A stretch of 64,000 bases of DNA from Longimicrobiales bacterium (GCA_965202985.1 CBDBCF010000001.1:160001-224000), one strand, 5' to 3'. Counted from the first letter of the stretch, positions 1 to 7,616 are shown. Translations and numbers: made by a program. The notes: generated from the sequence alone by a model not told the origin.

Positions 1-479
1 GCCAAGGCCGTCGCGTCCGTGACCTCCGCCACGGCAAGGTGCGCCCCCGTCGTGGGGTCGAAGAACTCGATCTCTCGCTTGGGCGGAAAGCCGTCCACGA
101 CAGCGAGCACGTCCCCGATCGAGCCGCCGATGCCGATGTAGGAGAACTCCCCCGGACCGCGGCCCGGACCGCCGTAGCTCCGTACCGGCCGCCCTTGCGA
201 GTCGAAGTGGTGCACGGAGTTGGAGAACCCGTCGATGACGAAGACGGCGCCGTCGGCCCCCACGAATATCTCGACCGGCTGGCCAAGGAAGATGTCGTCG
301 GTCTCCTGCAGCACCACGCTGTCCTCGAGGATCAGTGTTGGGCCGAGAAGCTGCGGGGGGGCCTGGGGCAGCTCGGCGGCGAGAGGCCCGGCAGCGACGA
401 CGGGTGCGACGGCCAGCAGCGCCCAACGGGAACGTCGCTCGGTCTCCCGGCGAAGCAGTCTGTTCATGAGCTGGGCCAT
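1..479 (-). CDS. 6-bladed beta-propeller (NHL/TolB-like) secreted protein, runs off the window start (partial)
   Basis: Not in the ORF track. Manual translation from ATG 479 gives MAQLMNRLLRRETERRSRWALLAVAPVVAAG...GQPVEIFVGADGAVFVIDGFSNSVHHFDSQGRPVRSYGGPGRGPGEFSYI, which has the GxGPGEF propeller motif. It starts immediately after the stop of the upstream propeller gene. Confidence 0.8.
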   Translation of the reverse strand, partial: MAQLMNRLLRRETERRSRWALLAVAPVVAAGPLAAELPQAPPQLLGPTLILEDSVVLQETDDIFLGQPVEIFVGADGAVFVIDGFSNSVHHFDSQGRPVRSYGGPGRGPGEFSYIGIGGSIGDVLAVVDGFPPKREIEFFDPTTGAHLAVAEVTDATAL

Positions 480-480
480 G

Positions 481-1683
481 CTAGGAACTCGGCTCGGAAG
501 CCATGCGGTAGGCCCGAACCTCCGGCACCCCCAGCTCGTCCTGGGCGAACCCGACCAAGCGACCGTTGCGGACGGCCTCGACCTCGAAGTCGGCGGGGAG
601 TTCGACGGACGCCACGTGGCTTCCGTCCAGCGAGAAGGCGGCCCACTCCCACTTGGTGCGGTCCTCCTTGCGGATCCCCACCCAGATGCGCCCTTCGTCG
701 TCCACTGCCAGCCCCGTCAGCGGCGGCCAGACGTAGGGGGCGCCGTCGAGAAACGGTCGGGCAAAGTGGTCCGCCATTTCGGCGGCGTGGGCGTCCAGTT
801 CGGCTGTCGTGACGCCGATGGGACTGGTCTCGTAGGAGAAGCCGGTCCAGGCGCCGTCCTCCAGGTCGACGATCGTCACGTCGAACGTCATGGAGTTGGC
901 GTAGACCACACGGTGGTCGGCGGCGAACCGCACAAACGAAGTCCGACCGTACGGGTGCCCGGCGATGCTCACTGCGCCGCCGCCGCGCCAGTCGAATCGG
1001 CGCGCCACGATGGATTCGCCGGGCGCAAAGGTCAGGATCGTGTCGTCCGCCGGGCCTCCGTCCTGCTCGTAGATGTGCCGCAGCGTGTTCACCCGTTCCT
1101 GGCCCACGTCGGAGCCCGAAGCCATGTAAGGCGTGATGTTCATCACGAGGAATCCCGCGTCGGCACGGGTCCGCCAGACGTCGCCGATGCGGCCCTGGTA
1201 TCCTTGGTGGCTGTCGAAGTCGTACACGTAGGCGGGCTCGCTGCTTTCCGGCGCGAACACCGTCAGGCGATACAGCCGGAAGTCCCACGCCGAGAGGCTG
1301 TCGCCCCGGAAGACGTGAACGTTGTTCAGGGCTTCGAACTCGCCAGGCCCTTCTCCCTCGCCCCCCAAAGCGCGGTCGCGGATCAGGTCGGGCGACAAGA
1401 CGAGAACCTCCTTCGACGAGTAGTCGGCCAAGTACGCGTGCCCTTGCGAGTCCACGTCCAAGTTGAGTGCGCCCGACAACAGAAGATCGTCGCCGGACGT
1501 TGCCTCCAGAGTCGTCTCCAGCCACGGACCCTTGGCCCAAGGGCGGATGTCGGCCCCTGGCCCGACAGGCTCGGCCCTCGACGCCGCGAACTGGTTCTCT
1601 TCGCTCAGGTCCGGACCGCCGCAGGCGCCGAAGACCAGCACGGCAGCGGCCAGCGTCCGGATGGTGTGGCACGAGGTGCTCAT
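481..1683 (-). CDS. 6-bladed beta-propeller lipoprotein (paralog 1)
   Basis: ATG 1683 with AGGAGG RBS, lipobox VFGA-C, motifs LDVDSQGHAYLAD, GEGEGPGEF and LAVDDEGRIWV. Confidence 0.85.
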   Translation of the reverse strand: MSTSCHTIRTLAAAVLVFGACGGPDLSEENQFAASRAEPVGPGADIRPWAKGPWLETTLEATSGDDLLLSGALNLDVDSQGHAYLADYSSKEVLVLSPDLIRDRALGGEGEGPGEFEALNNVHVFRGDSLSAWDFRLYRLTVFAPESSEPAYVYDFDSHQGYQGRIGDVWRTRADAGFLVMNITPYMASGSDVGQERVNTLRHIYEQDGGPADDTILTFAPGESIVARRFDWRGGGAVSIAGHPYGRTSFVRFAADHRVVYANSMTFDVTIVDLEDGAWTGFSYETSPIGVTTAELDAHAAEMADHFARPFLDGAPYVWPPLTGLAVDDEGRIWVGIRKEDRTKWEWAAFSLDGSHVASVELPADFEVEAVRNGRLVGFAQDELGVPEVRAYRMASEPSS

Positions 1684-1736
1684 ATCGCCTCCTTCCTCCT
1701 CAACAACGACGTGGTCAGACAACCTGACTTGGCACC

Positions 1737-5619: not shown

Positions 5620-5814
5620 ATGCGCGCGATGCTCATCGTCGGCTTGGTCGTTCTGAACTTGGCGCTTGCGGCAACCGCTGTCGCCATGCGTTCCGCCCCG
5701 GCTTCTTCGGAGGCAGGGCTCTTCCCCTGCTGCAGGGGAGATGGTCGGGCGGCGTACTGCTGCGACGACTGCTGCTGGATGCCCAGGGGCTGCTCGGACT
5801 GCCGACCCAACTAG
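5620..5814 (+). CDS. Secreted 8-Cys peptide B (64 aa precursor)
   Basis: Strong RBS AAGGAG before ATG 5620; MRAMLIVGLVVLNLALAATAVA-MRSAPASSEAGLFPCCRGDGRAAYCCDDCCWMPRGCSDCRPN. Confidence 0.85.
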   Translation: MRAMLIVGLVVLNLALAATAVAMRSAPASSEAGLFPCCRGDGRAAYCCDDCCWMPRGCSDCRPN

Positions 5815-6647
5815 TGGTCGTCCTCAGGCAGGCCTTCTGCTGGGGGCTCGGCCTGTCGCTGCCGTTCGTCGTCTTCGGCTTGGTCGGCATGAGCGTCCCG
5901 GGTGGGCGCTGGTTGTTGACCCTGTGCAGCATCCTGGCGACCGGACTGGGGCTGCTGCTGCCTTTCGCCGCCTTTGCGGGGGGATCCGCCGGGGGCCAGC
6001 GGGCCGCGCAGGTCTTGGGCTCGGCGATCCTGGGCCCGGCGATCGTCTCGGGACTCGTTCTCGGCGTCGCGACGTACGTCTTGCTTGCCTTCGCGAGCCC
6101 GCTGCTGCAGCACCCGTTGGAGGTTCACGCAGGCTGGACCACCGAAGCCGCCGCGGAGCGCTTCGGTCCGCCCACGCCATCGGGCATTCTCCGCAACCTG
6201 AGGTACGTGGAGGCGAACCCGCCGCAGGAGTACACCACGAGGGTCGAGCTTCCCGAGACCCGCTATCCCAGTCGGCTGCGAATGGCACTCCACCGCCCGA
6301 TCGCCTTCGGCGTCCTGGCGCTCGTCAACGTCTTCTTGGGGTGGCTGGCGGCGTCGGCAACGCAGGGACTTGCGCCGCGACGAGGTCGGCGCGTTCGGGC
6401 GGCGGTGGGCTTGGCCGGGAGCTTGGCCTGCTTCGCCGCCTTCGTCGTCGCCATGTCGCCGGACCGGGACTGGAACACCGCTTCGGGGGTCGTCGCGGCC
6501 TGGGCGCCCCTTGCGGTACCGGTGCTGGAGGCGCTTACTCTTGCGATGGTGGCCCGCCGCGTCGGCCCCAAGCACCGATCACACGCCCTTCGCGAGTCCA
6601 GCAACCTTGCACGAACCCTTCAAGATCGACCTGCGGAGGTTCCGTGA
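5814..6647 (+). CDS. Integral membrane protein (about 3 TM + loop + 3 TM), weakly LptF/LptG-like
   Basis: GTG overlaps the peptide B stop; six hydrophobic segments; MALHRPIAFGVLALVNVFLG resembles the LptF/G TM4 region. Confidence 0.6.
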   Translation: MVVLRQAFCWGLGLSLPFVVFGLVGMSVPGGRWLLTLCSILATGLGLLLPFAAFAGGSAGGQRAAQVLGSAILGPAIVSGLVLGVATYVLLAFASPLLQHPLEVHAGWTTEAAAERFGPPTPSGILRNLRYVEANPPQEYTTRVELPETRYPSRLRMALHRPIAFGVLALVNVFLGWLAASATQGLAPRRGRRVRAAVGLAGSLACFAAFVVAMSPDRDWNTASGVVAAWAPLAVPVLEALTLAMVARRVGPKHRSHALRESSNLARTLQDRPAEVP

Positions 6648-7155
6648 CGGCGACGCCGCCTACTTCAAAGTGCTGTTGGAACGCTTCGGGTTGCAGGTCG
6701 ACGCCATCGTCTTCTCGTACGCCCGCAGCGAGCTGGACTTGGCCGACGATCTCCGGCAAGAGTCCTGGGTTCGGCTCCACAAGAAGCGCAGGTCGTACCG
6801 GGGAGACGGCGACTTCGGGGCGTGGCTTCATCGTCTGGTCCACCGTGCTTGCATCCAGGAGCTGCGGAAGCGAACAAGACGGGCGGCCAAGTACGAGGAG
6901 TACGAAGAACGGCTGGACGCGCCGCCCCCGTCGCAACCCGACGAGGAGTTCGACCGCGCAGATTTCAGGTCGAGCCTGATGCGCGCCTTGGGACAGTTGC
7001 CGAAGCGCCAGCAGGACGCCTTCTACCTTACGCGGGTCGAGGAGTACAGCGTGAAAGAAGCCGCCGAACTGATGGGAACGAAGCCCGCGACCGTGCGGTC
7101 TCACGTGCGGCACGCCATCGAGAAGCTGAGGGAGTTGCTGAAGGAATGGGAATGA
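6607..7155 (+). CDS. ECF RNA polymerase sigma factor
   Basis: ADDLRQESW, FGAWLHRL and LGQLPKRQQDAF...EAAELMGTKPATVRSH motifs; TTG 6607 is a best-guess start. Confidence 0.9.
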   Translation: MHEPFKIDLRRFRDGDAAYFKVLLERFGLQVDAIVFSYARSELDLADDLRQESWVRLHKKRRSYRGDGDFGAWLHRLVHRACIQELRKRTRRAAKYEEYEERLDAPPPSQPDEEFDRADFRSSLMRALGQLPKRQQDAFYLTRVEEYSVKEAAELMGTKPATVRSHVRHAIEKLRELLKEWE

Positions 7156-7616
7156 CTGGTTGCCCGGACGCCGATCGGGTCGTCGCGTACCACGACGGCG
7201 AGGGAGAGTTCGACGCCGAGTTCGGGCGTCACGTCGAGAGCTGTCGGTCGTGCGGACTGGTCCTTCGGATGCTGGGGGAGGCTCGACCGGCGTTTGCGGG
7301 GGCGCCGCTGGAAGAACATGTCGTCGAAGGACTGTTGCAGGCCGTATTCTCGGGAGAGGACGCATCGGCCCCGGTCCCGCAGGCGCCGCGAATCAAGTTC
7401 TGGGACGTGGGGATTCCGGGCATGCTGGGGGCCGCCATGGGCCTTGCCGCCGGAGCGGCGATCGGCGTCTTGGGCCCGGGGACCACTTGGGGCCACGTGG
7501 CGGCGCTGGTTCTGGTCTACGGGGCCGGCGGCGTCTGGTTGGACTACCGGCTGGCGTTGCGGGACTTCATCCAGGCCCAGGAGGGACGGGCGGGCGAGGC
7601 GCTTGCGGGGGCTTAG
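7152..7616 (+). CDS. Zinc-binding (ZAS/zf-HC2) anti-sigma factor with two C-terminal TM helices
   Basis: HVESCRSC (HxxxCxxC); ATGA coupling to the sigma gene; two hydrophobic helices. Confidence 0.85.
   Translation: MTGCPDADRVVAYHDGEGEFDAEFGRHVESCRSCGLVLRMLGEARPAFAGAPLEEHVVEGLLQAVFSGEDASAPVPQAPRIKFWDVGIPGMLGAAMGLAAGAAIGVLGPGTTWGHVAALVLVYGAGGVWLDYRLALRDFIQAQEGRAGEALAGA

Follow-up and report, generated by a model that had tools for sequence, protein, structure and literature searches.

Two back-to-back gene sets, each with a small eight-cysteine protein predicted to be exported and a thioredoxin-type protein of its own, in a sponge-associated Gemmatimonadota bacterium

The first 7,616 nucleotides of a 64,000-nucleotide stretch from a Longimicrobiales bacterium (GCA_965202985.1, CBDBCF010000001.1; G000:C1:160001-224000 in our genome set, the whole stretch being called the window below) carry two gene sets placed back to back, each of which has the gene of a small, putatively exported protein with eight cysteines next to that of a thioredoxin-type protein of its own. 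The minus-strand set consists of peptide A, a propeller, a DsbA-like protein and two further propellers, and the plus-strand set of an extracytoplasmic function (ECF) sigma factor, a redoxin, peptide B, a membrane protein, a second ECF factor and an anti-sigma-like protein (Table 1). This content and order are those described by a first-pass annotation made from the sequence of the window. The genes are real, and they form two separable modules rather than one system. The genome (G000) is 3.86 Mb long and 92% complete. Homologues of peptide B are recorded under the source name Gemmatimonadota bacterium, and among 11 metagenome rows, from 5 studies, with the stretch or part of it, 5 have a sponge label and 3 a marine one; none of the 11 is recorded as RNA, which has no bearing on expression.

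Table 1. Features of the locus, in positions of the window.
Feature	Position	Strand	Basis
5' part of a 397-aa six-bladed beta-propeller (whole gene continues to G000:C1:159286)	1..479	-	PF17170 DUF5128, 23.7 bits (cut-off 22.9)
Beta-propeller, probable lipoprotein, 400 aa	481..1683	-	weak NHL/SGL matches; paralogue of the propeller at 2422-3633
DsbA-like thioredoxin-fold protein, 220 aa, CPFC, N-terminal hydrophobic anchor	1737..2399	-	PF13462 and PF01323
Beta-propeller, probable lipoprotein, 403 aa; the partner that usually follows peptide A	2422..3633	-	family profiles, neighbourhoods
Peptide A gene, frame broken near 3937	3750..3957	-	CC-CC-C-C-C-C, conserved ILVGGW-type leader, hypervariable core
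Predicted ECF-type promoter TTGCAC-N18-GTC	4350..4376	+	102 nt before ECF1; 25.1 bits
ECF sigma factor 1 (ECF1)	4452..5051	+	TIGR02937, 58.3 bits (cut-off 42.9); Sigma70_r4_2; region 2 below Pfam cut-off
Membrane-anchored thioredoxin-fold redoxin, CVHS	5048..5590 (start 5048/5060)	+	alignment, AhpC-TSA, PDB profile matches
Peptide B, 64 aa: hydrophobic N-terminal helix with Asn, then CC-x8-CC-x2-CC-x5-C-x2-C	5620..5814	+	Shine-Dalgarno GGAG
Six-helix membrane protein, 277 aa, candidate sensor	5814..6647	+	model and fold comparison
ECF sigma factor 2 (ECF2), paired with the anti-sigma	6607..7155	+	TIGR02937, 102.5 bits
Zinc-associated anti-sigma (ZAS)-type anti-sigma-like protein, C-x22-H-x3-C-x2-C and C-terminal hydrophobic segments	7152..7616	+	motif

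The genes were compared with known families. When the 12 proteins of the locus were scanned with Pfam and NCBIfam, the DsbA-like protein, both ECF factors and one DUF5128 propeller scored above cut-off; the other propellers and the membrane protein gave sub-threshold matches only, and the peptides, the redoxin and the anti-sigma-like protein had no match. As had been claimed, no radical SAM, YcaO, Lan or multinuclear non-haem iron oxidase (MNIO) match occurs among the 12 proteins, and no MNIO (PF05114) was found in G000, the control being positive in Caulobacter. No known family matching the locus was found in Pfam and NCBIfam, and no paper describing it or the arrangement was found in the main texts of the open literature. 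At the DNA level, a search of 40 relatives returned short propeller and DsbA pieces only. A DNA pattern search for the cysteine framework in 301 genomes was left unused, since CTG/CAG repeats dominated and the control pattern matched as well.

The plus-strand module is built around peptide B, which founds an unnamed family with the framework CC-CC-CC-C-C and a near-invariant Asn in the signal helix. The eight cysteines and the helix Asn are the sole invariant columns in an alignment of 38 genes, and the Asn is present in the hydrophobic helix of 41/41 peptide B genes at the loci. In a representative library the family makes up 137 clusters at 50% identity, of which 127 show the full framework (exactly 8 Cys) and 111 the helix Asn. 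No significant Pfam or NCBIfam match, including PF14055 and DUF2282, was obtained for the 38 members; a PDB sequence search with the profile gave 0 matches, and the ESM Atlas nothing at 0.9 or above. In the structure model of peptide B, 2-25 form a helix and the first CC pairs are part of a hairpin (predicted template modelling score, pTM, 0.31); a fold search with this low-confidence model gave no match. Sec export and cleavage are predicted for peptide B, and a small-x-small, cleavage-like motif (a loose pattern) is present in 36 of the 38 members.

The family is concentrated in its own taxonomic family. Its profile matched 17 genomes among 150 others of the order (16/50 in the own family, 1/50 and 0/50 in two others) and, in a 300-genome sample of the phylum, 15/47 genomes of the own family and 3/125 in one family of another order; of these last three G144 alone held up, the matches in G119 and G095 being discarded for lack of a supporting open reading frame (ORF). 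Within G000, Cys-rich ORFs preceded by a hydrophobic stretch were sought genome-wide; of the 21 candidates, 2 are the window's own peptides and about one third look like wrong-frame noise. Four candidates have the spacing CC-x8/9-CC-x2-CC-x5-C-x2/5-C and the profile adds a fifth, giving five copies in the genome.

The neighbourhoods of 41 peptide B genes in 39 loci were inspected within a radius of 3 kb (L127 has no parsable start). A redoxin lies near 38 of the genes, a propeller near 36, a membrane protein near 34, an ECF factor near 31, an anti-sigma near 20, an AraC-like gene near 12 and a DsbA near 2. At random spots in G000 the corresponding baselines are 0.7% for the redoxin, 11% for propellers, 0.9% for the membrane protein and 3.5% for ECF factors, so that the association is beyond chance for the redoxin (38/41) and the membrane protein (34/41). 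The pairing of secreted Cys-rich peptides with thioredoxin-fold proteins, which the first-pass annotation had put forward, is borne out across loci, both for peptide B and for peptide A, whose link to DsbA recurs as described below.

The redoxin is a subfamily of its own, dedicated to peptide B. Among 32 aligned members, a Gln in the membrane anchor is invariant (32/32), as are one Cys and an RTPW loop; the active site is CxxS in 15, CxxC in 9 and CxxT in 8, and 23 of the 32 have no second Cys. PF00578 (AhpC-TSA) matches 7/32 (best E 2e-6), and the profile finds 17 PDB matches, mostly PDI/TlpA-like structures. The protein has the thioredoxin fold and the membrane anchor of the TlpA/ResA type, with CVHS in place of the CxxC dithiol. 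In the reverse search, 36/36 redoxin matches at E<1e-40 sit at peptide B loci (one peptide being cut by a contig end); since 32 of them are training rows, the result shows only that no orphan copy appeared. Over 31 loci, similarity of the redoxin tracks that of peptide B (rho 0.78) and of the membrane protein (0.72), and peptide B tracks the membrane protein at 0.45, all of these values being inflated by kinship and linkage. Elsewhere in G000 the thiol machinery includes a VKOR beside a housekeeping DsbA and two DsbD; DsbB was not found in G000. More distant redoxins, in genomes of a third taxonomic family (f3), have other secreted 6- or 8-Cys peptides beside them at 8/10 loci (L222-L231), and the Cys spacing of those at L223, L224, L225, L228, L229 and L230 resembles that of cysteine-stabilised alpha-beta defensins. 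At L230 three tandem copies of a peptide with this spacing lie beside the distant redoxin.

The membrane protein, whose gene lies directly downstream of 29/41 peptide B genes, was modelled from 20 sequences (pLDDT 89.5, no strands). In a comparison with 48,161 chains the top three were LptG/LptF (Z 18.4, 16.8 and 16.8) and the next, unrelated, had Z 8.6; the LptG/LptF alignments cover 220-229 residues at a root-mean-square deviation (rmsd) of 3.5-3.7, the best being 6mjp_G (Z 18.4, rmsd 3.5, 229 aligned). Foldseek also ranked the LptF/LptG family first (E 0.025), and PF03739 is touched below cut-off by 5/20 members; the PDB sequence search with the profile gave 0 matches and the ESM Atlas nothing at 0.9 or above. 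The fold predicted from this model is the transmembrane part of LptF/LptG, with the periplasmic jellyroll missing. It shares the six-helix fold with LptF/LptG of LptB2FG (PDB 6mjp, 9doh, 8frl; Z 16.8-18.4), but it lacks the beta-jellyroll, is encoded by a single gene with no LptB nearby, shows 14-16% identity and has 277 aa as against about 355. No ABC ATPase motif was found in 40 loci. The protein is not the extractor of lipopolysaccharide (LPS), because it lacks jellyroll, partner gene and ABC motif and because a canonical lptFG pair is present elsewhere in G000 (C2:725808-728233). A sensor role is suggested by the fixed position of the gene ahead of those of an ECF factor and a ZAS-type protein. 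A reverse search with the membrane protein gave 36 matches, and of 30 loci fetched, 19 have peptide B upstream; those with the membrane-ECF-anti-sigma trio and no peptide B lie mostly among propeller genes or arrays. A long variant of about 390 aa has two extra C-terminal helices and is homologous to the short form (95.9%). That it could be a fusion with the anti-sigma was considered and is not claimed, profile comparison giving a probability of 10.6% only.

Three further loci of G000 (L002, C1:1885715-1892382; L003, 2089863-2093916; L103, C2:904000-911000) have peptide B with the longer membrane variant and an AraC-like gene, and are devoid of a separate anti-sigma and of the TTGCAC promoter described next. 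A fourth, L001 (G000:C1:2256445-2262803), is a paralogous locus with the same divergent layout: one side carries an anti-sigma, an ECF factor, a membrane protein, peptide B, a CVHT redoxin and an ECF factor, and the other a 184-aa exported 5-Cys protein and two propellers. In other genomes, peptide B and redoxin are exactly duplicated in tandem at L117 (G161:C1:20600-23600), and two different peptide B genes stand in tandem at L116 (G396:C445).

Control of the plus-strand operon was approached through its promoter. A gapped-word search upstream of peptide B genes was refined to TTGCAC-N18-GT[CT] (GTY), which has 54 matches in 54 loci as against 6.2 expected. The motif precedes redoxin, peptide B, membrane protein, ECF and propeller genes, divergent gaps often having it on each strand, and it is found at 16/21 loci with the anti-sigma versus 1/19 without, a test that overstates the link because the anti-sigma loci are mostly of one genus (g3). 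A matrix built from 38 sites of other loci, this locus being excluded, ranks 4350-4376 first in the whole genome (the next reaches 18.9 bits) and finds a weaker site (13.2) before the ECF gene of the paralogous locus (C1:2259628). For the left operon no facing site was found with the matrix (best -8.0), and a sigma-70 scan of the intergenic region gave no promoter. Thus ECF control, which had been proposed for both operons, is supported for the right one only, because the top site lies there and none faces the left. The second- and third-best sites of the matrix are at G000:C1:2044031 (18.9 bits) and 1214476 (14.8 bits). From the third-best site it is 2 kb to a different secreted peptide with 8 Cys (1216470), which may also belong to the regulon.

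G000 holds 22 ECF factors. At the locus, ECF1 has no anti-sigma of its own, and ECF2 is likely the reader of the promoter at 4350. The HxxxCxxC motif with an upstream Cys, next to an ECF gene, was recognised by eye in 18/21 cases, with C4, H27, C31 and C34 at least 90% conserved; zf-HC2 matches 2/20 of the anti-sigma proteins, with a best E of 0.026, below significance. The protein, a putative zinc anti-sigma, is predicted to hold ECF2.

In the left module, peptide A has a Shine-Dalgarno sequence and an ATG at 3957 that are out of frame with the Cys-rich part owing to a one-base break near 3937, and an in-frame TTG at 3932 has no Shine-Dalgarno sequence. The break is real, since it is carried by contigs from different studies, those of run X1 (probably the source sample) and of run X8 (another study, depth 4.9); it is not in X3. 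Because of the break, full-length peptide A is probably not made in this strain, so that the description of two Sec-signal 8-Cys peptides fits peptide B and not the peptide A gene as it stands here. The frameshift, the LptF/LptG fold and the promoter are additions to the first-pass annotation. Compared with the X3 allele, 16/180 nt of peptide A differ, against 0.5-1.6% in the flanks, and in the core after the indels 9/9 changed codons are non-synonymous, with no Cys affected.

A peptide A profile, built from two sequences, was searched against 150 other genomes and matched 14, of which 10 held on inspection, 3 (G188, G382, G338) were false and dropped, and 1 (G372, unpublished) was set aside; no claim depends on it. 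The 13 aligned members, which have between 6 and 8 Cys, share CC-CC-C-C and a conserved leader, and tandem duplicates occur in G246, G164 and G402. No Pfam or NCBIfam match, including the PF14055 and DUF2282 types, was found for peptide A. A propeller lies directly downstream in 8/10 relatives, and the order peptide-propeller-DsbA, with a DFQCP[FY]C motif, recurs in 4/10 within the 3 kb fetched (G250, G164, G231, G407). For the DsbA-like protein itself, PF13462 gives 99 bits (cut-off 23.2; E 4e-28) and PF01323 E 3.5e-19, and it has the thioredoxin fold, CxxC and an export-type N-terminal hydrophobic segment.

All three propellers had been called lipoproteins. The one at 1..479 has a signal peptide with no Cys in the signal region, hence no lipobox, and is for this reason not a lipoprotein. 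The other two remain probable ones: the N-terminal Cys is invariant in 10/10 aligned relatives of their family, though a strict lipobox pattern missed both. These two are 63.6% identical over 387 aa, and the first is distant (30% over 105 aa against the 2422-3633 propeller). In the peptide-A-linked family, PF17170 and NHL each match 4/10 members. The G+C content falls to 0.62 at 2001-4000 from about 0.68 around it, and a codon-based gene caller missed DsbA and most of the 2422-3633 propeller; together these suggest that this part was recently acquired or replaced.

The first-pass annotation had read the two operons as one system, a reading that is not supported. DsbA is near 2/41 peptide B genes, as noted, and peptide A neighbours peptide B in three genomes only: G000, G250 (on one strand) and G208 (5 kb apart). 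Peptides A and B are different families. The loose end of an X9 contig at 4414 was considered as a sign of separation and shows nothing, as it starts with similar letters.

Several known systems resemble parts of the locus. Bufferins of Caulobacter vibrioides are encoded with BufA/DUF2282, the MNIO BufB, the DUF2063 protein BufC and the DoxX protein BufD, under SigF/NrsF (PMC11626156). Like the present locus, they comprise a small Sec-signal precursor containing Cys, an adjacent ECF factor with its anti-sigma and a membrane protein in the operon; unlike them, the locus has no MNIO and no DUF2063, and peptide B has 8 Cys in CC pairs, as against 4 in bufferins (PMC11626156). The locus also differs in its thioredoxin-fold partner and in a membrane protein of LptF/G fold with no DoxX match. 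In terms of bufferin membership, then, the MNIO and the DUF2282 precursor are absent and a precursor of Sec type, by prediction, with adjacent ECF factor and anti-sigma is present. The peptides are neither bufferin nor NVEALA members. In Bacteroidota NVEALA (PF14055) and DUF5128 neighbourhoods, a small exported protein gene presumably stands directly before a propeller gene, often with a redoxin; no paper on that arrangement was found. A small exported protein gene before a DUF5128/NHL-type propeller is common to both, and an adjacent DUF5128 propeller is present here (PF17170 above cut-off for 1-479, and in 4/10 peptide-A-linked propellers), whereas the locus has no PF14055 match and adds 8-Cys frameworks, the ECF factor, the anti-sigma and the LptF/G-fold candidate sensor.

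Class I zinc (ZAS) membrane anti-sigma factors pair with ECF factors, as in SigW-RsiW. The locus shares with this type the order of ECF and HxxxCxxC protein with membrane segments and a bipartite promoter before its own operon; it differs in that its anti-sigma has little extracytoplasmic domain, a six-helix protein is conserved before the sigma gene and another ECF gene, an orphan, stands first in the operon. Disulfide bacteriocins with dedicated oxidoreductases, such as sublancin with BdbA/BdbB and the glycocins, likewise have a cluster-encoded thiol-disulfide oxidoreductase for a small Cys peptide, but with a double-glycine leader in place of the Sec signal; the peptides here are not cationic, and neither a glycosyltransferase nor a peptidase-ABC exporter is present. 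Finally, the mau cluster (MauA, MauB, MauD, MauE) combines a disulfide-rich small subunit, a propeller and a thioredoxin-like helper, and NHLRC2/SOQ1 joins a thioredoxin to an NHL propeller. The peptides here measure about 40 aa and have variable loops, the redoxin is encoded apart from the propeller, and no Pfam or NCBIfam match to MauA, MauB, MauE or MauG occurs among the 12 proteins. In the main text of a paper on marine Gemmatimonadota, a term search found none of cysteine, propeller and disulfide (PMC11316326).

The gene sets, the cysteine frameworks and the promoter motif are conserved, and in both peptide families fixed cysteines go with variable loops, the identity of the non-Cys core being below that of the leader (0.21 and 0.31 for peptide B, 0.19 and 0.43 for peptide A). 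We propose, with slightly less than even confidence, that the modules are two independent cassettes in which disulfide-locked, putatively exported mini-proteins act as variable extracellular ligands, the B module being under ECF autoregulation. Both peptides would be exported by Sec, and each would be locked by four disulfides that the adjacent thioredoxin-fold protein forms or corrects. Peptide A would be oxidised by the CPFC DsbA; the CVHS redoxin, with its single cysteine, would escort or isomerise peptide B, the housekeeping DsbA/VKOR pair supplying the oxidising and DsbD the reducing power. ECF2, held by the zinc anti-sigma and released on a signal that the LptF/G-fold membrane protein may read, would transcribe ECF1, redoxin, peptide B, membrane protein, ECF2 and anti-sigma from TTGCAC-N18-GTY, forming a positive loop. 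It is likely that the right set switches itself on in this manner, by means of a stress sigma factor together with a membrane protein whose predicted fold is that of an LPS-transporter subunit. The weakest step is the last, in which the peptides would be ligands and the propeller lipoproteins their binding partners. A bolder version, which we consider improbable, is that an LPS-transporter subunit fold, stripped of jellyroll and ATPase, has been recruited as a membrane receptor for a secreted four-disulfide peptide and releases the ECF factor from the zinc anti-sigma; the peptide would be recognised or anchored by way of the conserved Asn of its signal helix.

A number of observations speak against the ligand proposal. 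The promoter counts carry the bias of genus given above, and the pattern was first noticed in some of the same loci later tested. Propellers are abundant in G000 (87 matches, with 11% of random spots within 3 kb of one), which makes adjacency to them weaker evidence. The model of peptide B is weak, and no disulfide pairing is visible in it; its three vicinal Cys pairs are also compatible with metal binding. Peptide B differs from X3 at 2/195 nt and so is not hypervariable at strain level, and the propeller of peptide A is nearly unchanged between strains while peptide A varies strongly, a poor fit with lock-and-key binding. Peptide B follows the membrane protein less closely than it follows the redoxin, and the membrane-ECF-anti-sigma trio occurs without peptide B at 11/30 loci (one cut by a contig end), so that peptide B is not required there.

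The compatibility with metal leads to a different reading, an unlikely one in our estimate, in which peptide B is a periplasmic buffer that binds soft metals (Cu, Hg, Cd, As) through its vicinal pairs, and the CxxS/T redoxin keeps it reduced or makes it so again. The loop of ECF factor and zinc anti-sigma would then respond to metal stress, much as in bufferin systems, though no enzyme would modify the peptide. The CC pairs are indeed invariant, the cores are mostly neutral or acidic (median charge -2), most of the redoxins (23/32) have no second Cys and the genome has two DsbD; bufferins are themselves Sec-exported Cys peptides under an ECF factor and anti-sigma (PMC11626156). Against this, the exact number of 8 Cys in 127/137 clusters fits four disulfides, peptide A has an oxidase-type CPFC DsbA and diversifies non-synonymously, the genome has no MNIO, and five divergent paralogues per genome exceed what a buffer would need.

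The rapid non-synonymous change and the broken allele of peptide A, together with conserved leaders, variable cores and the tandem duplicates of G246, G164 and G402, would suit weapons of competition, that is, secreted disulfide-rich antimicrobials or effectors with the propeller lipoproteins as cognate immunity, and peptides with defensin-like spacing flank distant redoxins. Yet the cores are not cationic (peptide B median -2, range -10 to +4; peptide A median -1), no dedicated outer-membrane exporter was found in 40 loci, where ABC motifs alone were searched, and between strains the propeller fails to vary along with peptide A; this reading has a slim chance.

Equally slim is the case for peptide B as an uncleaved, membrane-anchored modulator whose Asn helix packs on the LptF/G-fold protein or on the Gln anchor of the redoxin, its Cys cluster being a redox or metal sensor that controls the anti-sigma. 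A precedent is LptC, a helix of which packs against LptF/G in LptB2FGC. The constancy of the Asn (41/41 loci, 111/137 clusters), the invariant Gln (32/32) and the membrane gene of LptF/G fold directly downstream in 29/41 all agree with it; the trio without peptide B at 11/30 loci, peptide B without the membrane protein at 7/41 and the cleavage-like motif in 36/38 (loose pattern) do not.

Lastly, that a mobile envelope island has gathered unrelated small genes, redoxins and propellers with no coupling among them is very improbable, since, for all the 87 propellers and 22 ECF factors of the genome, the shuffled gene order between loci, the restriction-type and helicase genes just upstream (seen by eye) and the G+C dip to 0.62 at 2001-4000, redoxin and peptide stay paired through inversions and re-orderings, a common promoter precedes each separated part and the arrangement redoxin-propeller-peptide is met again in another order of the class (G144) and in another family (G391). 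This explanation is largely refuted for the peptide-redoxin pair and still holds for the juxtaposition of A and B.

The locus appears to be an undescribed arrangement, and its own contributions are the peptide B framework, the Asn and Gln anchors, the LptF/G-fold protein and the promoter. Mining for ribosomally synthesised and post-translationally modified peptides is anchored on enzymes and so misses bacterial disulfide-rich mini-proteins that lack a modifying enzyme, and two unnamed peptide families with their own putative folding catalysts, one in 137 clusters, may supply new small stable scaffolds. A one-cysteine redoxin facing four predicted disulfides is a natural test case, the ECF promoter is directly testable, and the LptF/G-fold protein apparently lies outside LPS transport, in a sigma/anti-sigma switch. 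If peptide B is a signal, it would mean peptide communication in an uncultured sponge-associated Gemmatimonadota lineage. Should the receptor version be true, sponge symbionts would possess an autoinduction loop that senses peptides, each genome having several orthogonal channels, and its principle would resemble that of conotoxins, with a fixed framework, variable loops and a dedicated folding catalyst.

Some observations concern the surroundings. At least 8 further secreted 6-8-Cys peptides with other frameworks are present in G000 (C1:1124685, 1216470, 1543168, 1887206, 2556151, 2570268 and 2870137; C2:895830), and most adjoin propeller genes. Upstream of the locus, G000:C1:149370-159119 encodes a nuclease-like protein (HILP motif), a helicase of the SNF2 type with 1192 aa and a further large protein that is exported; read by eye, the region upstream of the propellers is possibly the edge of a defence island. 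Within the window, 36001-40000 and 50001-54000 show an AT skew of about 0.2 with high G+C, and are probably repetitive coding sequence.

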